IMG/VR virus record: IMGVR_UViG_3300038704_000071
Span: 509 to 64,508 of that record
From: a virus
Lineage: Duplodnaviria > Caudoviricetes
Reading direction: 5' to 3' (one strand)
Length of the DNA: 64,000 nucleotides
Shown here: one piece after another, positions 1,884 to 39,910 of the stretch
Layout of the letters: the number at the start of each line of letters is the position of its first letter
Position numbering within the stretch: position 1 is the first letter of the stretch
The notes under the pieces: model-generated
Database searches by the model: none
What the model was told of the DNA's origin: nothing
What the model saw: the letters and a program-made list of their open reading frames with translations, nothing else
Program-made: the position numbers and the translations under genes

Positions 1884-2134
1884 TCCTCCGGGTTCAAGAC
1901 ATCACCGGGCAGCAACGCCGCCTCCGCGCCGGCCCGCGTCAGATGAAACAGCACGTCGCCCGGCAGCAGGTGCTTGTTCTCCCGCCGCCATGCGTGACCG
2001 GTCACGACCATCGAGATCCAGTCGCCATAGTCAGGATGCCCCGGGCCGGCGACGAAGTGATTCCGATGGCTTATCAGCCGCGTCGGCCGCAGACCCAGCG
2101 CGTGGCGGGCGAGTTCGATTTGGTGCGGGGTCAT
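1874..2134 (-). CDS. Hypothetical phage protein
   Basis: MTPHQIELARHALGL...RNHFVAG; overlaps the upstream stop. Confidence 0.6.
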   Translation of the reverse strand: MTPHQIELARHALGLRPTRLISHRNHFVAGPGHPDYGDWISMVVTGHAWRRENKHLLPGDVLFHLTRAGAEAALLPGDVLNPEDWP

Positions 2135-2556
2135 CGGTTCGCGATCTCCAGCAGCACGTCGGCGTGGCACGGCGCGCCTGGCTTGCACCAGCAGGCGAGG
2201 TTCTTTCCGCCGAGCGCGCTCTTGATCTCTTCTCGCGAGGGCGCGGCGCCGGCCTTCACTGCCGGCCCGAGTGTGACCTCGCCGCCGGGTCCGACCATCT
2301 TCGGCTGCAGTTCGTGGCTGACCGTCTGCCGCCCATGTGGAGGGTCAATCCAGTCGCGGAAGGCACGCACTGACGCTTCCTGCCGGCCGGCGGGATCGGC
2401 GCGGCAGCCAAAGGACAGGGCGGCCCAGCTATACTCGGAACTGCGGAAATCGAACGGATTGCCCCAGCGGGTCGAGCGGTCGACCTTCACGGCGTTCGCC
2501 GGCATGCGCCAGCCCTTGGCGCGCGAGAGTTGGATGCGGACAGGTCGGTCGCTCAT
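2131..2556 (-). CDS. DUF4326-family protein
   Basis: PVRIQLSRAKGWRMP..AVKVDRSTRWGNPF and LGGKNLACWCKPGAPCHADVLLEIAN. Confidence 0.85.
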   Translation of the reverse strand: MSDRPVRIQLSRAKGWRMPANAVKVDRSTRWGNPFDFRSSEYSWAALSFGCRADPAGRQEASVRAFRDWIDPPHGRQTVSHELQPKMVGPGGEVTLGPAVKAGAAPSREEIKSALGGKNLACWCKPGAPCHADVLLEIANR

Positions 2557-2741
2557 CTCGGATTCTCCGCGTTGAACTGCTCGGTGGCCCTGAGGATGCG
2601 CTCCCACGCGGCCGGCTCCTCGACTGACAGCCGATTCGCAGCGACCGAGTTCGCGCGCCACCACGCATCCCAGTCCGCCGGGTCTTTCCAGTGGCCGACC
2701 TGCGCCATGACGGCGGGGTTCGGGCGAGGATGGGCGGTCAC
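2553..2741 (-). CDS. Small hypothetical protein
   Basis: ORF with 4-nt overlaps at both ends. Confidence 0.5.
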   Translation of the reverse strand: MTAHPRPNPAVMAQVGHWKDPADWDAWWRANSVAANRLSVEEPAAWERILRATEQFNAENPR

Positions 2742-3796
2742 GTCGGAAACTCCCGGTGCAGCTTGCCGTCGAGCTCGGCGCCGGCCGCCTTCTTGCCGAC
2801 GCGATAGGTCGTGCAGGGGTGCAGCTTGTTGAAATCGGCCCGGATGGCGTCGCCGCGGCGGGCGCCGTCAGGCCAGGCCAGGTCGGACATGCGGTAGTGC
2901 GCACCGTCGGTGCCGATCGCGTGGCATTCGGCCTTGCGGGTCGGATCGACCGGACCCCATTCGCCCCACTGCTTGAAGAAGTACGCAATTCCGGCCGCGG
3001 CGCATTGGTCGCGCAGATCGCGTGCCCAGTCGGGATGCATCGGCCGCGCGCGCGGGCCGCTCTCGCCGCCGGCGATGACCCAGTCGAGGCGATTGAACCG
3101 CCCGTCGAGCGGCCGCATAAATCCTTCGCTCCGGGTCCGCGGTATGGCTGTCAGATCGATCGCGCCCAGCAGAGGCTCGGCCGAGATGAAGCGCTTGGCT
3201 GCCGGAGTCGCCAGCAGGTGCGGGATGCGCTCGTCGGCGCGCGCCTGGTCCTCGGTCGAGACACCCAGCCAGACGTTGGGCAGGGGCAGTTTTGTCTGCC
3301 AGTTTCCGCCGTGCTCGATCTTCGATCCGAGTGGCGTGCCCAACAGTGACCACGTGGCGCCATTGATGGTTGCCAGTCGAAGCGGGTGCGCGAAATACTC
3401 CCGCATCCGCTTCGCCCGCTTCGTCAGCACCTGGAACGTGTGCTGCGGGCAGAGCGCCATGACGGCTAAGATGCGGTCGATGGTCTCGTCGGCGACGCCC
3501 TCGTGGAACAGGTCGGACATCGAATTGACGAACACGCGGGCGGGCTTCCGCCACCGCAGCGGCGCCATGAGGATGCTGTCCGGCGCCGTCGCAACCTTAC
3601 CGGTCCACACCGCGCCAGCCTTGGTCTTCATGGTGAGCCCGGCATAGTGCGGCGCGTGGCCGGCCGTGCCGTTCATGCCCTCGATCCGGTGCGCCATCTT
3701 CATGGCGTAGCAGTTCGTGCAGCCAGGTGAGACGATGCTGCAGCCCGCGACCGGGTTCCACACCTTGTCGGTCCACTCGATGCTGGTGTCGCCCAT
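2738..3796 (-). CDS. Phage Gp37/Gp68 (DUF5131) family protein
   Basis: TSIEWTDKVWNPVAGCSIVSPGCTNCYA, FVNSMSDLFHE, RFISAEPLLG, WVIAGGESGPRARPMHPDWARDLRDQC, FFKQWG. Confidence 0.92.
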   Translation of the reverse strand: MGDTSIEWTDKVWNPVAGCSIVSPGCTNCYAMKMAHRIEGMNGTAGHAPHYAGLTMKTKAGAVWTGKVATAPDSILMAPLRWRKPARVFVNSMSDLFHEGVADETIDRILAVMALCPQHTFQVLTKRAKRMREYFAHPLRLATINGATWSLLGTPLGSKIEHGGNWQTKLPLPNVWLGVSTEDQARADERIPHLLATPAAKRFISAEPLLGAIDLTAIPRTRSEGFMRPLDGRFNRLDWVIAGGESGPRARPMHPDWARDLRDQCAAAGIAYFFKQWGEWGPVDPTRKAECHAIGTDGAHYRMSDLAWPDGARRGDAIRADFNKLHPCTTYRVGKKAAGAELDGKLHREFPT

Positions 3797-32547: not shown

Positions 32548-34566
32548 ATGGATCGACCGGTATGCGTTGCCTTGCAGGTCAAGGCGATGAACGAAGACGC
32601 GCGCCTGATCGAGGGGTGGGCGACGCTGGCTGAGATGGACCGCGTAGGCGACGTCGTGCTTCCGCGGGGAGCGAGCTACGAGCTGCCGCTGCCCTTCCTT
32701 CTCGACCACGACCACCGCAAGGCCGTCGGCGAAGTTGATCGGGTCGAAGTGTCGGACAAGGGCATCAAGTTCTGGGCGCATATCAAGAAGATCGCCGAGC
32801 CCGGCGAGGTCAAAGACCTGTGCGACACCGCCTGGTCGCTCGTGAAGAACGGGCTCCGAAAGGCTGTGTCCATCGGCTTTTCCGCGAAGGACTTCGACAT
32901 CCTGCCCAACGGCGGGCTGAAGTTCACTTCGTGGGAATGGCTTGAGCTTTCTGCCGTCACAGTGCCCGCGGCTCCGGGCGCAAGAATCACAAACATCAAG
33001 AGCGTCGCGCCTCAAGACAGGTTCACCACCATCAGCGCCGACATCCAGAATCCGAGCGATCGCGAACCCGCCGCGTCCGGCAAGACGTTCGCGACTGTCC
33101 GGCTGCAAACCCCTCCCGCGTCCGGGAAATCGGCCACATCCAGCAAGCCCCAGGAGGGCAGTCCTTTGAAAATTTCGGAGAAAATCTCGCGCTTCGAAGA
33201 GAAGCGCGCCGCCAACACCGCGCGCATCGCGGCCATCCACGAGGAGACCGACGAGTCCCTCAACGACGCGCAACTCGATGAGATCAAGGGCCTGGAGGCC
33301 GAGATCGCGACCATCGACCGCGACCTGCCGAGCCTGAAGCGCGTCGAGGCCGACTTGGCCAAGAATGCCAAGCCGGTTCCCCGTACCGCGGGCATCGGTG
33401 ACAACGGCGGCCCCGCTCTGCAGCCGACTGTCGGCGTCTCCGTCAAGCAGGTGCCGAAGCCCGAACCGGGTATCCGCTTCGCGCGGTATGTCCGCTGCAT
33501 GGCGATCGCGCACAAGGACCACGTCGATGCCGCGCGCCTGGCCGAGAACCTCTACGGTGAGCGCGACCCCGTGGTGGTCGGCATGGTCAAGGCCGCAGGC
33601 ACCGCCGTCGGCGCGTACAACGGCACCACCGACTCTGCTCTGATCGGCAATGAAGGCGGCTTCGCCGACTTCGTGGAGTTGCTCCGCAACCGATCCATCG
33701 TCGGGCGGTTCGGCCAGAACGGTATCCCCGCCCTGCGCGGCATCCCGTTCCGCGTGCCGCTCATCAGTCAGGTGACGTCCGGCGGGGCGTACTGGGTCGG
33801 TGAGGGTGACGGCAAGCCGGTCGTGAAGGGCACGTTCGGCCGCACCGAGCTCGCGCCACTGAAGATCGCGGCCATCTCCGTGGCCACCATGGAAGTGCTG
33901 CGCGACAGCTCGCCGGGCGCCGAGCGGCTGATTCGCGACGACCTTGCGGCCTCGATCGTCGAGCGCATGGACTTGTCGTTCATCGACCCGACGAACAACG
34001 GCTCGGCCGGTGTGTTCCCGGCATCGATCACGTACGGCGCCGAGGCCATCGTGTCGGAAACCTACTCCGATGCCGACGACATCCGTACCGATGTTCGCTC
34101 GCTGATGCAGAAGTTCATCGATGCCAAGAACCCGCTTACCACGGGTGTCTGGGTGATGTCGGCGAGCAACGCGCTGGCGCTGTCGATGATCAAGAACGCG
34201 CTGGGCCAGGCGGAATTCCCGGCCATCACGATCAACGGCGGCATGTTCGAAGGTCTGCCGGTGATCGTGTCCGACCACATCGGCAGCTATGTCGCTCTGG
34301 TGAACGCCAGCGACATCTGGTTCGGCGACGAGGGCGGCATCCAGATCGACATGTCCGACCAGGCGTCCCTGCAGATGGTCGGTGGCGACGATGACGGGTC
34401 GACCCAGAACAGCATCACACCGGTGGCGACGTCGATGGTGTCGCTGTGGCAGACCAACAGCGTCGGCATCCGTGCCGAGCGCACGCTCAACTGGTTGCGC
34501 CGCCGCACTTCGGCGGTGGCCTACCTCAGCTCCGTGACCTGGGGCGGTGCGGTCAACGCATCCTGA
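32548..34566 (+). CDS. HK97-type prohead protease / major capsid protein fusion
   Basis: LLDHDH, SIGF, WLELSAVTVPA (protease) followed by capsid motifs WVGEG, PLKIAAI, LWQTNSVGIRAER. Confidence 0.92.
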   Translation: MDRPVCVALQVKAMNEDARLIEGWATLAEMDRVGDVVLPRGASYELPLPFLLDHDHRKAVGEVDRVEVSDKGIKFWAHIKKIAEPGEVKDLCDTAWSLVKNGLRKAVSIGFSAKDFDILPNGGLKFTSWEWLELSAVTVPAAPGARITNIKSVAPQDRFTTISADIQNPSDREPAASGKTFATVRLQTPPASGKSATSSKPQEGSPLKISEKISRFEEKRAANTARIAAIHEETDESLNDAQLDEIKGLEAEIATIDRDLPSLKRVEADLAKNAKPVPRTAGIGDNGGPALQPTVGVSVKQVPKPEPGIRFARYVRCMAIAHKDHVDAARLAENLYGERDPVVVGMVKAAGTAVGAYNGTTDSALIGNEGGFADFVELLRNRSIVGRFGQNGIPALRGIPFRVPLISQVTSGGAYWVGEGDGKPVVKGTFGRTELAPLKIAAISVATMEVLRDSSPGAERLIRDDLAASIVERMDLSFIDPTNNGSAGVFPASITYGAEAIVSETYSDADDIRTDVRSLMQKFIDAKNPLTTGVWVMSASNALALSMIKNALGQAEFPAITINGGMFEGLPVIVSDHIGSYVALVNASDIWFGDEGGIQIDMSDQASLQMVGGDDDGSTQNSITPVATSMVSLWQTNSVGIRAERTLNWLRRRTSAVAYLSSVTWGGAVNAS

Positions 34567-34637
34567 TCCTGAGTGAATGATGCGGGCGGCGGCTTCGGTC
34601 TCCGCCCGTCTTTCCCTCGCCTCCGGAGATCACGCTT

Positions 34638-34958
34638 ATGAAAATGCGAGCCACCAAGCCGCTGACCTATCGCACCCGCAGGCTGTTGCCCGGCGACGTC
34701 TTCGAGGTCGAGCGCAACAAGGACGCCCGCGTGCTGCGCGCCATTCGGAAGGCCGAAGATCACGTGGAGATCGAGGATTCGCCGATGCAGGCACCAGTTC
34801 CCCCGCCCGTCGTCGAGGCCGCCGTTCCGCCGCCCGAGGACCTCGCCGCGATCCGCGCCGAATATGAAGCCGCAGTCGGCCGCAAGCCGTTCAACGGTTG
34901 GAACACCGAAACCCTCCGCGAGAAGATCGCGGCGCACAAGGCGGACGATCAGTCGTGA
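34638..34958 (+). CDS. Small head-module protein with C-terminal HeH-like motif
   Basis: IRAEYEAAVGRKPFNGWNTETLREKIA. Confidence 0.65.
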   Translation: MKMRATKPLTYRTRRLLPGDVFEVERNKDARVLRAIRKAEDHVEIEDSPMQAPVPPPVVEAAVPPPEDLAAIRAEYEAAVGRKPFNGWNTETLREKIAAHKADDQS

Positions 34959-35653
34959 TCGCCTATGACGAGATCCTCGATGGCCGCCGCACGACGGTCG
35001 TCGTGAACGAGCGCGGTGACGAGCTCGACCGCTATGCCGGCGTACCCCTGTCGATCCCCGTCGTGACGCCCTTCATCGAGCCCGGCGTCTACGTCTCGAC
35101 CCATGCCGCACTGGGCCGCGTCCCTTTGGCGACCGCCGCCAATCGCCGGCCGGTCCGCCAGCCCACCGCCGGCCGTATCGGAAGCGGCACCGTCATCGGC
35201 GACTTCGCCGTGCTCTACGCCGGCACGTTCATCGGCCGCGACTGCCAGATCGGCGACCACGCCGTTATCCGGGAGGATGTTCGGCTCGGCAACCGTGTCG
35301 TGGTCGGCACGATGGTTGACCTGCAATACAACGTCTTGGTGGGCGACGACGTGAAGTTGCTGAACCAGACGCAGATCACCGGAAATAGCACCATCGGACG
35401 CGGGTCTTTCTTTGGACCGGGTGTGCAGTCGATGAACGACAGGGAACTATTCAAGCACGAACCCGAAGATTACCAAGACCGTGGACAGGTCGGCATTACT
35501 GTCGGCGAGTATGTCCGCATAGGTGGCGGCGCCATCTTGCTGCCCGGCATCACTATCGGCGCTCGTGCAGTCGTCGGCGCTGGGGCGGTTGTCACCCGCG
35601 ATGTTGCGGCCGGCGAGACTGTGATGGGCTTTCCGGCCCGGCCGCGAGGGTAA
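34955..35653 (+). CDS. Hexapeptide-repeat acyltransferase
   Basis: [IV]G hexad repeats; IGGGAILLPGITIGARAVVGAGAVVTRDV. Confidence 0.88.
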   Translation: MIAYDEILDGRRTTVVVNERGDELDRYAGVPLSIPVVTPFIEPGVYVSTHAALGRVPLATAANRRPVRQPTAGRIGSGTVIGDFAVLYAGTFIGRDCQIGDHAVIREDVRLGNRVVVGTMVDLQYNVLVGDDVKLLNQTQITGNSTIGRGSFFGPGVQSMNDRELFKHEPEDYQDRGQVGITVGEYVRIGGGAILLPGITIGARAVVGAGAVVTRDVAAGETVMGFPARPRG

Positions 35654-35661
35654 ATAAAACG

Positions 35662-35746
35662 TTGCGTTGCGGCGCGTGGCGAAGAGTCGAGTCGCGGCGC
35701 GGCGCGGTGCGTGGCGAAGCGCCACGGGGCGCCACGATGCGAAGCG
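35662..35746 (-). repeat. Pentamer array unit 0 (17 x CGC/YNY+NN), putative guide RNA
   Basis: Minus strand cgctt cgcat cgtgg cgccc ... cgcgc cgcaa cgcaa, then cgttttattta. Confidence 0.85.
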
Positions 35747-35750
35747 GTAG

Positions 35751-35993
35751 CTATACCTTGAGCCTTACCCCCGCTCCCCCGTCGCGGGTTTGGCCTGGAT
35801 CGAGAAACACGACGCCGGCAGCCTCCAGAGATTGCTTGATGGCGAGGAGGCTTCGGGTGTGCATATTCGGCATCTCGTCCGCCGATTCAGCACGTTGGAG
35901 CGCCGCGTAAGACACCCCGCAGTGTTCGGACAATTCGCGGCCGGACCACTTGAGCAGAGCGCGCGCGGCGCGGATTTGAGCGCCGGTAAGCAT
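35751..35993 (-). CDS. XRE-family HTH regulator
   Basis: MLTGAQIRAARALLKWSGRELSEHCGVSYAALQRAE...LEAAGVVF. Confidence 0.88.
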   Translation of the reverse strand: MLTGAQIRAARALLKWSGRELSEHCGVSYAALQRAESADEMPNMHTRSLLAIKQSLEAAGVVFLDPGQTRDGGAGVRLKV

Positions 35994-36144
35994 GGCGGCA
36001 AGGTTCACGGCAGGGGCCTTGGAGGCAACACTTTTTTGCATCGGCATTGATAGGCATTCCGTGGTGTTCTGTAGTGTTATAATCGAATAAGCGGACAAAG
36101 CTATCGTTTCTGCTTGCAATATACGCCAAAAGGAGGAATATTCC

Positions 36145-36175
36145 AACCGTCTCATATCCTTAAAGGAGGACGGTT
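36145..36175 (+). promoter_or_regulatory. Hairpin overlapping the RBS of the RAMP-like gene
   Basis: AACCGTCTC-N12-GAGGACGGTT pairs over GGAGG, 1 nt before the GTG start. Confidence 0.45.
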
Positions 36176-36176
36176 C

Positions 36177-36758
36177 GTGAAAACCCTCATCGCAAAGCTG
36201 CGCGGCGTCTCGCCGTACTCTCAGTCGAGGCACTACATTCGGGAACTGGAGCAGGGCGAGTCTCAGGACGACAACTACCGCCGGACGTGGCGGGGGCACC
36301 TGCATACGGACAACGCCGGCATGGTGTTCATTCCGGCCAACTCGCTGAAGAACTGCTTGTCGGACGCCGCCAAGTTCATGAGCATCTCGGTGCCGGGCAA
36401 AGGCAAGGCGACCTACACGAAGAATTTCGAGGCCGGCATCATGGTCGCGCAGTCGGCGCCGCTGGGTGTCCACAAGGACAAGGTCGACTTCGAGGCGCTG
36501 TTCCTGCCGAGCGACGGCCGGCGCGGCGGGCCCAAGCGGGTCATGAAGTACTACCCGATCATCCCGGAGTGGGAGACGGAGGCCGAGTTCATCATCGTTG
36601 ATGAGACGGTCCTTCAGTCGTCAGTCAAGGATAAGACGAGGACGGTGTTTCAGGAGGTGCTGGAAGGCGCCGGCCAGTACATCGGTATCGGGAGGTTTAG
36701 GCCGCGGAATAATGGATATTATGGCCGATTTTCGGTAGAAAGCGTCAAAGAGGTCTGA
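36177..36758 (+). CDS. Cas7/RAMP-like protein (193 aa), putative guide-RNA-binding effector
   Basis: N-terminal strand KLRGVSPY, FIPANSLKNCL (cf. RAMP IP.SS.KG), C-terminal Gly-rich loop GAGQYIGIGRFRPRNNGYYGRF. Confidence 0.72.
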   Translation: MKTLIAKLRGVSPYSQSRHYIRELEQGESQDDNYRRTWRGHLHTDNAGMVFIPANSLKNCLSDAAKFMSISVPGKGKATYTKNFEAGIMVAQSAPLGVHKDKVDFEALFLPSDGRRGGPKRVMKYYPIIPEWETEAEFIIVDETVLQSSVKDKTRTVFQEVLEGAGQYIGIGRFRPRNNGYYGRFSVESVKEV

Positions 36759-36764
36759 GGATTT

Positions 36765-37270
36765 CGCCGCGCCCCGCAGCGCAACGCAATGTGGCGCTAC
36801 GCTACATGGCTCAGCGCTTCGCGACGTACCGCCGCGCATCGCGTCGCCCCGCCGCGCTCCGCCCCGCAACGCAACGATTGTTTAAGAGAATTTCGCCGCG
36901 ACGCCCCGCTTCGCACCGCAGCGCGCCGCACCACAACGCTCTGCCCCGCCGCGTAGTGCGCCGTAGCGTCTCGTCCCGCAACGCATCGATTGTTTTAGTC
37001 ATAAGAGAGAACTTCCAACGCGGCGCACCGCGGCGTGCCGCAATGTGGCGCCACGTCCTGCTTCGCGGCGCATCGCATTGCTACGTGGCGCGTTTCTCCG
37101 CACTGCTACTCGGCGCATCGCACCACAACGCAACGCATCGATTGTTTAAGAGAATTTCGCTGCACCGCTCTACCGCGCACCGCATCGCGGCGTTCCTCTG
37201 CGCTGCTCAGCGCCGCGCTGTGTAACGCATTGTATCGCAGTGCCACGCGCCGCAACGCCCCGCAACGCAT
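36765..37270 (+). repeat. Pentamer array units 1-4 (22, 18, 24 and 22 x CGC/YNY+NN) with AT-rich linkers, putative guide RNAs
   Basis: Units 36765-36874, 36897-36986, 37019-37138, 37161-37270; linker CGATTGTTTAAGAGAATTTCGC identical at 36875 and 37139, variant at 36987. Confidence 0.9.
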
Positions 37271-37298
37271 CGTCCTATCCTCCAGCAATCAGGACCCC

Positions 37299-37817
37299 AT
37301 GACGAAGCCCCGCTTTGAGGCATCTCCGGATGTCGAGACCTGCGCAGACTTCCTGCGCGACAACAAAGGCCGCGAGCTGATCAGCTACGCATCAATTGCC
37401 GAGGCTACCGGCCGCGAAGATATCACCGGCAAGAGCCGCCACGTTCTCGCGTCGGCTCGCCGCATCCTTGAGCGTGAAGGCATCATATTCGTGGTCGAGA
37501 CTGGCGCGGGCCTGAAGCGCGCGAGCGACGCGCAGGTGGCGACGTTGGCGACCAGCGAGCCCATCGTGAAGACCCGCCGGATCGCGAAGAAGGCGAAGAA
37601 GCGCCAGTCCGCGGTCAACGTCCAGAACCTGACCGGCGAGCAGCGCATGGCCTTCTGGATCGGCAGCGCCATCCTTGGCGCAATTGATCAGGCAGCCAGC
37701 CGGGCATTCAAGAACCGGGTCGAAAAGTCGGCCAATGTGACCGACGGGCCGATCCCGATGAAACAGACGCTCGACCTGTTCAAGAAGATGCGGACGACAA
37801 GGAAGTCGCTGCAGTAG
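37299..37817 (+). CDS. Accessory protein embedded in the array, probably winged-helix DNA-binding
   Basis: AGGA RBS; ISYASIAEATGRED...LASARRILEREGIIF..ETGAGLKR; basic C-terminus. Confidence 0.7.
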   Translation: MTKPRFEASPDVETCADFLRDNKGRELISYASIAEATGREDITGKSRHVLASARRILEREGIIFVVETGAGLKRASDAQVATLATSEPIVKTRRIAKKAKKRQSAVNVQNLTGEQRMAFWIGSAILGAIDQAASRAFKNRVEKSANVTDGPIPMKQTLDLFKKMRTTRKSLQ

Positions 37818-37825
37818 GTTAACAG

Positions 37826-37979
37826 CGCCGCGCAACGCACCGCTTCGCACCGTAGCGTGCCGCCGCGCCACGCGCCGCTTCGCATCGCAACGATTGTTTC
37901 GATAATTTCTGCCACGCATCGTCCCGCACTTTATCGCGGCGCGGCGCGGCGTGTCGTTTCGCAACGCAACGCTACGTAT
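37826..37979 (+). repeat. Pentamer array units 5-6 (13 and 14 x CGC/YNY+NN)
   Basis: 37826-37890 and 37910-37979, separated by CGATTGTTTCGATAATTTC. Confidence 0.85.
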
Positions 37980-37998
37980 CGACCAGTGAGGCCCGCCA

Positions 37999-38697
37999 GT
38001 GAGCAATCTGACGGTCGCTTCGTTTTGGGTTTATCGCCCCGAGGAACACCCTCACGCGGCAAACTATCCGGCCATGCTGGAGATACTGCAGCGGTCATGT
38101 GACCGGCTCGGCGCCCGGCATATCCTGCTGACAGACCACGCCACGGCCGACGCGGGCCTCGTCCCGGTTGGAATAGAGCACTACGCCTCGGACCTCCCGA
38201 GGAACGTGATGCAGGCGACCACTCAGGCGCAGGCGCACTTTCTGGAGAACGCCCCGGCGTGGTTTGGCGATGTCCTGTTCGTGGGAGCTGACTCGATCCT
38301 GTTGCAGGACCCGAGGCCGCATCTGCCGGATGCCGACCTGTGTGTGACCTCGCGTCGACCGCGCCCGCACCTCGACGCGATCAACAATGGTTTCATGTAC
38401 ATCCGGCGGCGAGCGCTAGGTCAGGTTTCCGCCCTCTACAGGCGCGTCGCTGATCGCTGCGGGACTGAGTGGCGCGACGACCAGCGCGCCCTGGTGGTCG
38501 AACTCGATCCGGTCCCGATGCCACCCGTCATCGAAGAGCGCGCCGGTCTCCGCGTCGCGTTCCTGCCGATGCGCCGGTTCAACGACTGCCCCCGCTGGCC
38601 CGGCGATCCCTGCAAGGATGCCGTCCTGCTGCACTTTCGGGGCCGCCAGCGGAAAAAGATGATGTTCGCCTGGGCGAAGAGACAGGGGCTATTCTAA
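37999..38697 (+). CDS. Glycosyltransferase-like (GT-A) protein
   Basis: LFVGADS, NNGFMYI, DDQRAL, RFN..P, LHFRG; paralog of 39200-39910. Confidence 0.7.
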   Translation: MSNLTVASFWVYRPEEHPHAANYPAMLEILQRSCDRLGARHILLTDHATADAGLVPVGIEHYASDLPRNVMQATTQAQAHFLENAPAWFGDVLFVGADSILLQDPRPHLPDADLCVTSRRPRPHLDAINNGFMYIRRRALGQVSALYRRVADRCGTEWRDDQRALVVELDPVPMPPVIEERAGLRVAFLPMRRFNDCPRWPGDPCKDAVLLHFRGRQRKKMMFAWAKRQGLF

Positions 38698-39203
38698 TGC
38701 CGAAGCCAAACACCAATAGGTACGAGGATTTGGGCGACGGCAGCACAAAGCTTGTGCTTGCGTCGGGTGCGGCGTTTGTGATCGACACCGAAGATGTCTC
38801 GATGTTGCGTGGGTTTGGCTGGTGCCGCGACGTGACGGGCTACGCCAAGGCCAGCTATCGCGAGGACGGCAGGACCAAGCATGTCTATCTCCATCGCATG
38901 CTGTGTCGCGTGAGTGTTGAAAGGCCTCGCGTTGATCACATAGACGGAGACCAGAGCAACAACCGTCGGAGTAATCTGCGGGCTTGCACCCAGTCCGAGA
39001 ATCTCTTCAACCAGAAAATCAGCGTCAGAAATCGATCTGGTGCTAAAGGCGTCTATGTCCGACCGAACGGGCGCTTCGCCGCTCAAGGCGCTATGCACGG
39101 AAAGCACTATCACCTCGGTCTCTTTTCCACTCTGGAGGAAGCTGCCGCTGCTGCGGCGAGGTTTCGCGATGACAACCATGGCGAGTTCGCGAGACACGCA
39201 TGA
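38697..39203 (+). CDS. HNH-AP2 homing endonuclease
   Basis: YLHRML, VDHIDGDQSNNRRSNLR..T..EN..N, SGAKGV...HLGLFST.EEAAAA. Confidence 0.9.
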   Translation: MPKPNTNRYEDLGDGSTKLVLASGAAFVIDTEDVSMLRGFGWCRDVTGYAKASYREDGRTKHVYLHRMLCRVSVERPRVDHIDGDQSNNRRSNLRACTQSENLFNQKISVRNRSGAKGVYVRPNGRFAAQGAMHGKHYHLGLFSTLEEAAAAAARFRDDNHGEFARHA

Positions 39204-39910
39204 AGGACACCGTCGTTGCGTCATTCTGGTGCCACAGGCCCGCCGATTTCCCCGATGCCGCCGATTACATCGGCATGCTCAAGATCCTCGACCGGTCCTG
39301 CCGCGCCGCCGGCATGCGCCACGTCGTGCTGACGGATTTCAAGTCGTCGCAGATGCTGCCGCAGGGCCTGGAGTTCTTTGCCACGCAGCTGCCGCGCAAC
39401 CTGCTGCAGGCCACGACGGCGGCACAGGCCGAATGGGTGCGCGCGACCCGCTACCCGGATGACGACACCGTCTTCGTCGGCGCCGACTGCCTCGTCCTTC
39501 ACGACTTCCGGCCCTTCCTGCGGCCGGCCGATCTGTCGATCTGCACCTTCCCGCACCGCAAGCTCTGGATCATGAACGGGTTCATCCATGTCCCGGCCGC
39601 CAGCCGCGAAAAGCTGATCCCGCTGTTCGATCGCGTCGCCCACGGCACCCGCGCCTTTCCGGCGAAGACCTGCGACGACATGGCGTCATGGGAGCGGGTC
39701 CTTCGCCCGCGGCCCAAGGATCTCTGGGGCAAGGAAGAGCGCCACGGCCTGACTGTGCGCTTCCTGCCGGAACCGATCTGGAACGAGCGGCCGCTGTCGG
39801 CAGAGGAACCCTACGCCGAGGCGCATGTGCTGCATTTCCGGGGCGCGCCACAGAAGGCGATGTTCTTCGAGTGGGTGAAGCTGCACCGGCCGGAACTCGC
39901 CGCGGCCTGA
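39200..39910 (+). CDS. Glycosyltransferase-like (GT-A) protein
   Basis: FVGADC, MNGFIHV, DDMASW, WN..P, LHFRG. Confidence 0.7.
   Translation: MKDTVVASFWCHRPADFPDAADYIGMLKILDRSCRAAGMRHVVLTDFKSSQMLPQGLEFFATQLPRNLLQATTAAQAEWVRATRYPDDDTVFVGADCLVLHDFRPFLRPADLSICTFPHRKLWIMNGFIHVPAASREKLIPLFDRVAHGTRAFPAKTCDDMASWERVLRPRPKDLWGKEERHGLTVRFLPEPIWNERPLSAEEPYAEAHVLHFRGAPQKAMFFEWVKLHRPELAAA

Follow-up and report, generated by a model that had tools for sequence, protein, structure and literature searches.

INTRODUCTION

VIPR (Viral Interference Programmable Repeat) systems combine a RAMP protein, Vipr, with an accessory protein, Vap, and with vrRNAs, and seven types have been described (bioRxiv 10.64898/2026.04.26.720920). 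The published vrRNAs are made of 9 to 16 YNNGG repeats, which can be written GGY/NN, and an invariant tail. Their NN bases read double-stranded DNA, with one base skipped per repeat; the same preprint also names NNNGG, YNNNG and NNNNG as other repeat forms (10.64898/2026.04.26.720920). Here we describe a locus in a 64,000-nucleotide stretch of the phage record IMGVR_UViG_3300038704_000071 (positions 509 to 64,508; the whole stretch is called the window, and its numbering is used throughout). The locus is very likely a VIPR system in which at least seven vrRNA arrays accompany a RAMP protein, Vipr, and a winged-helix Vap, with CGC rather than GGY as the main triplet.

In the SUSP1 Vipr, the first base of the triplet (G1) is contacted by H17 and D177, the second (G2) by R138 and W178, and the third (Y3) by a pocket that includes R179 (10.64898/2026.04.26.720927). 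An anti-satellite function and solo vrRNAs directed against the vipr genes of rivals have been reported, targets being called at an identity score of 0.8 (10.64898/2026.10.15.759431). Non-canonical triplets are known from 21 clusters, with GAC/NN, CAC/NN, WGT/NN and TGH/NN repeats (10.64898/2026.10.21.760802). CGC/NN is not named in the text, figures aside, of 10.64898/2026.04.26.720920 or 10.64898/2026.10.21.760802. An earlier reading of the window from its letters (the original prediction) had pointed to a likeness to phage VIPR; this is indeed the system described in 10.64898/2026.04.26.720920 and 10.64898/2026.04.26.720927.

RESULTS

A Vipr homolog is accompanied by seven pentamer arrays

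The core of the locus consists of the following elements.

35652..35746, - strand: vr0, inverted array of 19 CGY/NN pentamers, downstream of and co-oriented with a helix-turn-helix gene
36177..36758, + strand: vipr, 193-amino-acid RAMP/Cas7-like protein, GTG start
36765..36874, + strand: vr1, array of 22 pentamers directly after vipr
36892..36986, + strand: vr2, array of 19 pentamers
37014..37138, + strand: vr3, array of 25 pentamers
37156..37285, + strand: vr4, array of about 23 to 26 pentamers
37299..37817, + strand: vap, 172-amino-acid protein with a predicted N-terminal winged helix and C-terminal helical bundle
37826..37890, + strand: vr5, array of 13 pentamers
37910..37979, + strand: vr6, array of 14 pentamers

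The vipr product was compared with known proteins by sequence, profile and model. A phmmer search of the PDB sequences retrieved 36pp, "SUSP1 Vipr protein," with an E value of 2e-4, and a 22-sequence profile brought this to 7.6e-5. As reference Viprs we used those of Felixounavirus HY02, which is SUSP1-type and carries the published residue numbering, and of Pseudomonas phage LESphi2; the two are 39% identical to each other. The family profile aligned with HY02 and LESphi2 Vipr over its full length by HHalign (98.8%, E of 1e-16, 169 columns) and with LESphi2 Vipr alone at 99.2%. The AlphaFold (AF2) model had a mean predicted local distance difference test score (pLDDT) of 82, and its best Foldseek matches were type VII Cas7 and type III Csm3 (probability 1.0, E of about 1e-6, template modeling [TM] score of about 0.5), at 11 to 17% sequence identity to Cas7 proteins. 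The RAMP/Cas7-like character proposed by the original prediction was thus upheld, and homology and modeling together indicate that the 193-amino-acid product is homologous to Vipr and adopts a RAMP fold. Its G-loop, GIGRFRPRNNGYYGRF, spans residues 170 to 185, and the thumb hairpin spans about residues 104 to 140. The protein matched PHROG 4652, and Pfam gave no match for Vipr or Vap. The family is large, with 2242 word-indexed matches and 990 cluster representatives, its closest named member being a hypothetical protein of Methylocystis sp. SC2.

Arrays were sought as unbroken Y-N-Y-N-N runs of at least 8 pentamers on both strands of the window. Seven long runs of 13 to 26 pentamers were obtained, six on the + strand and one on the - strand. 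Only one further run was present, with a length of 8 pentamers, and first-order Markov shuffles gave 0 to 5 runs of at least 8. A motif-free scan of period-5 information content, using five phased columns in 50-nt windows, flagged these seven tracts and no others in the window. Both approaches therefore agree with the seven strictly 5-nt-periodic tracts of the original prediction. Its counts of 89 CGC pentamers and of Y-N-Y throughout were also right, with the correction that the tracts hold 138 in-register pentamers (CGC start in 89/138, Y-N-Y in 138/138) and not 130.

The + strand arrays are preceded by an AATTT-like stretch and end at the 3′ side with an in-register cap, CGCAA CGCA(A/T) CGA, after which comes an AU-rich spacer of about 19 nt (TTGTTTAAGAGAATTT or variants). 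Relatives of the CGC class keep the cap CGCAA-CGCAA-CG and the triplet; their spacer differs, and their NN pairs are unrelated even between close relatives. The orientation of vr0 is unusual, as 248/248 oriented arrays of related loci lie on the vipr strand. Its 3′ end (CGCAA CGCAA CGTTT TATTT) is closer to the array ends of the closest relative of the locus, L024 (CGCAA CGCAA CGTTT ATT), and less like the CGATTGTTT ends of the + strand arrays in the window. We also observed that vr2 and vr5 share NN pairs 4 to 7 (TT AC AG GC) in the same register; these may be two alleles for one motif, (F/L)-T-(S/R)-A, of a target.

The association was followed in 103 homolog loci (L001 to L103), 23 from species genomes and 80 from IMG/VR. 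Period-5 tracts adjoin vipr in 97 of them, a co-occurrence that the original prediction had put forward as a check of its claim.

Two arrays match conserved motifs of rival phages

To decode the guides, arrays were reduced to their NN pairs and matched with 0, 1, 2 or 3 skipped bases. When all guides were compared with all fetched loci, high-scoring windows were in excess at skip 1 only, and nearly all of this excess was contributed by vr1 and by the L024 array orthologous to it, the first of that locus. Pairs 1 to 12 of vr1 (CG CC AG AA AA GG TA TA GG AG TT GA) equal codon positions 1 and 2 of R-P-R-N-N-G-Y-Y-G-R-F-(D/E), the nearly invariant G-loop of Vipr. The vipr gene of L024 (84% identity) matched at 24/24 bases, and most family members matched at 20 to 23/24. 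In the 103 homolog loci, vr1 had 69 sites with at least 20/24, compared with 0 for 100 order-shuffled guides, and none at skip 0 or 2.

Pairs 1 to 12 of vr3 spell a motif of HK97 capsid proteins, NGTGANGQPLGI, i.e., (K/N)GTGA(K/N)GQPLGI. Used as an exact NNx pattern, pairs 2 to 12 matched nine IMG/VR contigs, and all nine matches were in frame, in coding sense and on the same motif, (N/H/S/A)GTGANGQPLGI. The target open reading frames belong to Pfam Phage_capsid (PF05065); some of them, like the capsid gene of this phage, also encode a fused S78 prohead protease. The capsid protein encoded in the window has NNGSAGVFPASI at the motif position and reaches at most 11/24 against vr3. No guide matched the phage's own genome at skip 0, 1 or 2.

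The original prediction held that the NN pairs spell a gapped target, and vr1 and vr3 do so under the published 1-nt-skip rule. By these sequence matches, the NNx code applies to this locus; vr1 is a predicted anti-vipr guide aimed at the invariant codons for the G-loop in rival vipr genes, and vr3 a predicted anti-capsid guide against the conserved motif of HK97-type major capsid genes.

The other searches were negative within their scope. Exact IMG/VR scans with vr0, vr2, vr4 and vr5 gave no match; for vr2, there was no exact match in the metagenome collection and none with up to 3 mismatches in the records of five relatives. The array vr6 had no target among the homolog loci and the relatives' sequences, the only set checked for it. 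The whole records of the five relatives held no further guide target. The middle pairs of vr1 and vr3 gave no match in IMG/VR; matches were seen for the 5′ twelve pairs only. In 401 Beijerinckiaceae genomes, the vr1 pattern at its full 20 pairs was not found with up to 3 mismatches, and the vr3 pattern gave 3 matches at 3 mismatches in 91 Beijerinckiaceae genomes compared with 1 for the control, which is not clearly above background. Guides of 100 related loci had no match on this phage.

In other relatives, both GGC-class and CGC-class guides matched VIPR loci of other phages at 18 to 19/20 with skip 1. Examples are L052:3811-3860, with a site in L098 near 1057; L099:4635-4726, with a site at L055:6030; and L100:3427-3574, with sites in L058, L060, L064 and L065 about 170 nt after vipr. 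Such sites cover early vipr codons and the region after vipr. These sequence matches suggest that members of the family commonly target one another's VIPR loci.

The phage's own vipr differs from the guide at its arginine codons

The stretch homologous to the vr1 target lies within the phage's own vipr.

36699..36734, + strand: own G-loop codons R175..S186, AGG CCG CGG AAT AAT GGA TAT TAT GGC CGA TTT TCG

The vr1 guide matched this stretch at 19/24. The mismatches are the first bases of three Arg codons and codon 12, which encodes a different residue. Against CG, AG and AG in the guide, the own gene has the Arg codons AGG, CGG and CGA, so that each belongs to the opposite codon family (CGN or AGR). 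These three switches are all the synonymous differences that the peptide permits, and all of them are present in the own vipr. The pattern suggests that the choice of Arg codon family may protect the own vipr.

The accessory protein is distantly vap1-like

In 69 related loci, which cover every triplet class, a vap homolog adjoins vipr and is co-oriented with it. The AF2 model of the 172-amino-acid product had a pLDDT of 94. Its Foldseek matches were OmpR/PhoB-type winged-helix DNA-binding domains, with a probability of 0.99 but an E value of only 0.06. The vap family profile aligned with the vap1 homolog of LESphi2 (HHalign 78%, E of 1.8e-5), and the LESphi2 accessory protein is 27% identical to HY02 vap1 (E of 2.5e-14), whereas the direct comparison of the vap family with HY02 vap1 gave only an E value of 0.0017 at 15%. 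On profile and model comparisons, the 172-amino-acid gene is best described as a winged-helix accessory vap, distantly vap1-like. Because LESphi2 links vap to vap1, the nearest described relatives are of type II. The original prediction had raised a distinct subtype, which was overstated: both Vipr and the accessory protein are nearest type II, and CGC/NN is one of several non-canonical triplets in one family.

A type II VIPR locus is also present at 2080 to 3573 of LESphi2 (L133, vB_Pae_LESphi2, OQ594955.1), a P. aeruginosa LESB58 prophage. The locus has three GGY/NN arrays, vipr and a vap1 homolog, lies next to the cI/cro region and is annotated as hypothetical proteins only.

The constant triplet varies within the family

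The dominant triplet of the homolog loci was GGC in 53, CGC in 24, GAC in 9, GTC in 3, GTT in 2, CTC in 1 and ATT in 1. A tree obtained by a quick maximum-likelihood search requires 7 changes for the CGC label, at least 2 of them forced by well-supported branches, and at least 3 changes for GAC. The family spans 40 to 85% identity; there are Viprs 70 to 76% identical to each other that nonetheless have different triplets (GGC/GAC, GGC/CGC).

Alignment with SUSP1 Vipr places Q16 at H17, Y126 at R138, R173 at D177, F174 at W178 and R175 at R179. The change from D177 to R173 was considered as the cause of the switch from G1 to C1 and was rejected, as the GGC and CGC classes share R173 and do not differ in their G-loop residues. 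The best separation of CGC from GGC members is given by the columns of L110 and Y126 of the window protein. Position 110 is L (or A) in nearly all CGC members and V in every other class; position 126, the equivalent of SUSP1 R138, is Y in nearly all CGC members and F in every other class. One CGC clade (L018, L021, L022) has other residues at these columns. The thumb residues L110 and Y126 are thus only candidate determinants of the CGC preference. No columns determining GAC or GTY versus GGC were found in the family alignment.

The locus lies in the head gene region of a prophage

The provirus record is 64,508 nt long, with a CheckV completeness of 82%. Positions 33177 to 39758 (6.6 kb, arrays included) are 100% identical in GCA_027308585.1, GCA_002282435.1, GCA_035429365.1 and SRR21686674; in our locus set, L105, L106 and L107 are identical copies of this region and L108 is a partial copy. 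The identical 6.6 kb is found on contigs of 88 to 325 kb, and the phage is therefore an integrated prophage of a recurrently sampled bacterium. On the host side, it is an environmental alphaproteobacterial prophage, the nearest named Vipr homolog being from Methylocystis.

The 193- and 172-amino-acid genes, the divergent helix-turn-helix gene and the flanking genes were found where the original prediction had placed them. One flanking gene encodes a hexapeptide acyltransferase (Pfam Hexapep, E of 1e-25) and the other has a weak nucleotide-diphospho-sugar transferase match, and a major capsid-protease fusion lies directly upstream of the region. The 64.5-kb record contained no Cas1 and no spaced, CRISPR-like repeats, in line with the original prediction, which had noted neither cas1 nor a classical repeat-spacer array. 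No Rfam family, including hammerhead ribozymes between the arrays, matched in the locus. Further features read from the locus are as follows.

35751..36047, - strand: XRE-type helix-turn-helix gene, 98 amino acids, divergent from vipr
36075..36083, + strand: extended -10-like element TGTTATAAT (TGnTATAAT), about 95 nt upstream of the vipr start, read from the sequence
36164-36169, + strand: AGGAGG, 7 nt before the GTG start of vipr
37879-37906, + strand: promoter-like site TTCGCA-16-GATAAT, found by the consensus scan and listed with vr6

The helix-turn-helix gene matched Pfam HTH_3 with an E value of 2.5e-4, under the curated cut-off, and its PHROG matches are regulators. Among the related loci, a homolog adjoins vipr only in L024. 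This gene is a possible local regulator and is not a conserved VIPR part. The TGTTATAAT element preceding vipr is a putative extended -10; the consensus promoter scan did not list it because of its weak -35. We also noted a gene with HNH_3 and AP2 domains (Pfam matches, homing-endonuclease type) at 38469-39203. It lies between two glycosyltransferase-like genes of similar length, 37999-38697 (232 amino acids) and 39200-39910 (236 amino acids).

DISCUSSION

The locus belongs to VIPR by the homology of its protein, the architecture of its arrays, its accessory gene, its place in a viral genome and its recognition code. By analogy with SUSP1, Vipr protomers would polymerise along each vrRNA, one per pentamer, sequestering the constant triplet (C-G-Y here, not G-G-Y) and presenting the two variable bases. 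These bases would read double-stranded DNA as NNx, every third base being skipped, and the bound filament would block transcription (10.64898/2026.04.26.720920, 10.64898/2026.04.26.720927, 10.64898/2026.10.15.759431). The arrays may be transcribed from the vipr strand, vr0 together with the helix-turn-helix gene, and their transcripts may be cut at the AU-rich spacers, while the CGC preference would depend on the thumb residues L110 and Y126. Most likely, the function is to silence competing phages at sites out of reach of wobble mutation. The system would act on superinfecting or co-resident competitors and spare self.

Several observations weigh against this interpretation. The skip rule and the silencing have been demonstrated for GGY systems only. 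Five arrays out of seven (vr0, vr2, vr4, vr5 and vr6) gave no target in the searches made, and the matches of vr1 and vr3 end after pair 12 though these arrays hold 22 and 25 pentamers. Predicted folds of the tails and spacers were no better than those of shuffled sequences (z of -0.15 to +1.4), unlike the pseudoknot tail of SUSP1. In place of the SUSP1 G1 readers H17 and D177, GGC and CGC members alike have Q16 and R173. Lastly, the own vipr still reaches 19/22 against vr1 over the shared peptide, above the 0.8 score at which the preprints call targets.

This self-match could mean that vr1 is an autoregulatory guide, whose imperfect binding at the 3′ end of its own vipr throttles read-through into the arrays and vap as a negative feedback, instead of acting on rivals. 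We consider this unlikely, while giving it some weight. Over the identical peptide, the own gene does exceed the target-calling score (10.64898/2026.10.15.759431); moreover, vr1 lies directly after the gene that it matches, and the first array of L024 also matches its own vipr, at 21/23. Nevertheless, the guide fits the L024 allele perfectly, and its fit to its own gene is poorer than that to most members of the family. The own gene also has every permitted synonymous mismatch, for which the chance is roughly 0.05 based on codon-family frequencies read by eye, and the preprints give a lower self-match than non-self-match for comparable guides.

Readings that dispense with VIPR altogether fare far worse. 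The tracts might function as DNA, for example as iterons bound by a protein, as recombination sites or as simple repeats rich in GC, in which case the RAMP-like protein would have another substrate. GC-rich arrays in a GC-rich genome, with predicted folds no more stable than shuffled ones, would fit such elements. However, 12 consecutive dinucleotides spell codon positions 1 and 2 of conserved motifs in two independent arrays, and the guide-target match is exact at skip 1 only, which a DNA-binding repeat would not explain. The arrays also co-occur with the protein in 97/103 loci, always on its strand. Because of the target matches, this reading is effectively refuted. We attach just as little credence to a degenerate or minimal CRISPR-Cas remnant, in which a type III, IV or VII Cas7 would stand alone with no array. 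Type VII Cas7 and type III Csm3 are the top Foldseek matches of the protein, but the low Cas7 identity (11 to 17%) and TM score (about 0.5) contrast with a full-length Vipr profile homology at an E value of 1e-16. The record has neither CRISPR repeats nor Cas1, the locus holds only vipr, vap and the helix-turn-helix gene, and the arrays show a 5-nt period and a 1-nt-skip code rather than a period of 6 nt.

VIPR, non-canonical triplets and vipr-targeting guides have been known since 2026, and the locus is not a new kind of system. Specific to it are decoded targets for a CGC class, the Arg-switch pattern in a phage that itself has VIPR, matches limited to the 5′ twelve pairs, an inverted array and the candidate determinants L110 and Y126. 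VIPR is thus extended from the characterized GGY systems to a CGY class with natural targets. Since the same NNx code is found under CGY, the constant triplet and the reading rule are separable. The decoded guides aim at the most conserved codons of rival vipr and HK97 capsid genes, which wobble mutation cannot alter. For tool building, naturally orthogonal triplet classes in one family could give several independent programmable DNA binders per cell, and the two candidate specificity residues point to the same use.

It may be that the triplet is a switchable private key, a new triplet making Vipr deaf to foreign vrRNAs and the phage's own guides useless to rivals; we put this forward tentatively and think it rather doubtful. 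The use of foreign vrRNAs, the "guns for hire" hijack, has been shown for SUSP1 satellites. If the private-key idea is true, the diversity of triplets would be the product of an arms race, set by a few thumb residues, and six-fold-degenerate codons, here those of Arg, would offer a route to keep a conserved motif and yet escape a wobble-blind guide.

The closest described systems are the type II VIPRs of SUSP1, other Felixounaviruses, a Pseudomonas fulva prophage clade and LESphi2. The locus shares with them a Vipr homologous over its full length and a two-gene vipr-vap core in a viral genome, with arrays upstream, between and downstream. Also shared are a winged-helix accessory protein with a weak vap1 relationship, pentamers of a constant triplet plus NN in which G2 and Y3 are kept, and the 1-nt-skip code, in which the skipped base is the codon wobble position. 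The named relatives compared for this placement are of type II only (HY02 and LESphi2), and the vap1 link is weak (probability 78%). The locus departs from type II in the first triplet base, which is C (or T) and not G, so that the arrays fall outside the canonical GGY form, though not outside VIPR, for which the preprints also admit "a related consensus" (YNNNG and others). The SUSP1 contact residues H17, D177, W178 and R138 are replaced by Q16, R173, F174 and Y126, and the G-loop has a 4-residue insertion (NNGY) relative to SUSP1-type Vipr. Instead of a structured 3′ tail, which the fold predictions did not support, there is the CGCAA-CGCAW-CGA cap with its AU-rich spacer of about 19 nt. Unlike the published arrays of 9 to 16 repeats, four arrays have 19 to 26, with matches only in the first 12, and one array is inverted.

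Like the reported non-canonical VIPR arrays, those of the window have a triplet other than GGY and adjoin a gene for a Vipr fold, and C-NN-CG fits the "YNNNG" repeat. No targets were given for the reported arrays, whereas two targets here show the same skip rule. A more distant likeness is to the Cas7 filaments of class 1 CRISPR systems (Csm3, Cmr4 and type VII Cas7), which have the RRM/RAMP fold, the G-loop and the thumb, one protomer per fixed RNA step and a thumb that periodically breaks the guide-target duplex. The Cas7 step is 6 nt with one base flipped, whereas the VIPR step is 5 nt with three bases sequestered. The locus further differs from class 1 CRISPR in having no CRISPR array or adaptation genes and in its target, double-stranded DNA read as NNx.

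The vipr-targeting vrRNAs of the SUSP1 family (10.64898/2026.10.15.759431) resemble vr1 in having rival vipr genes as targets, sites near the 3′ end included, and in matching self less than other phages. In that family such guides are solo vrRNAs on phages whose vipr has been lost, whereas here the guide lies directly after the own vipr of a VIPR-positive phage, whose own copy of the target differs, unlike in those cases, by Arg codon-family switches only.

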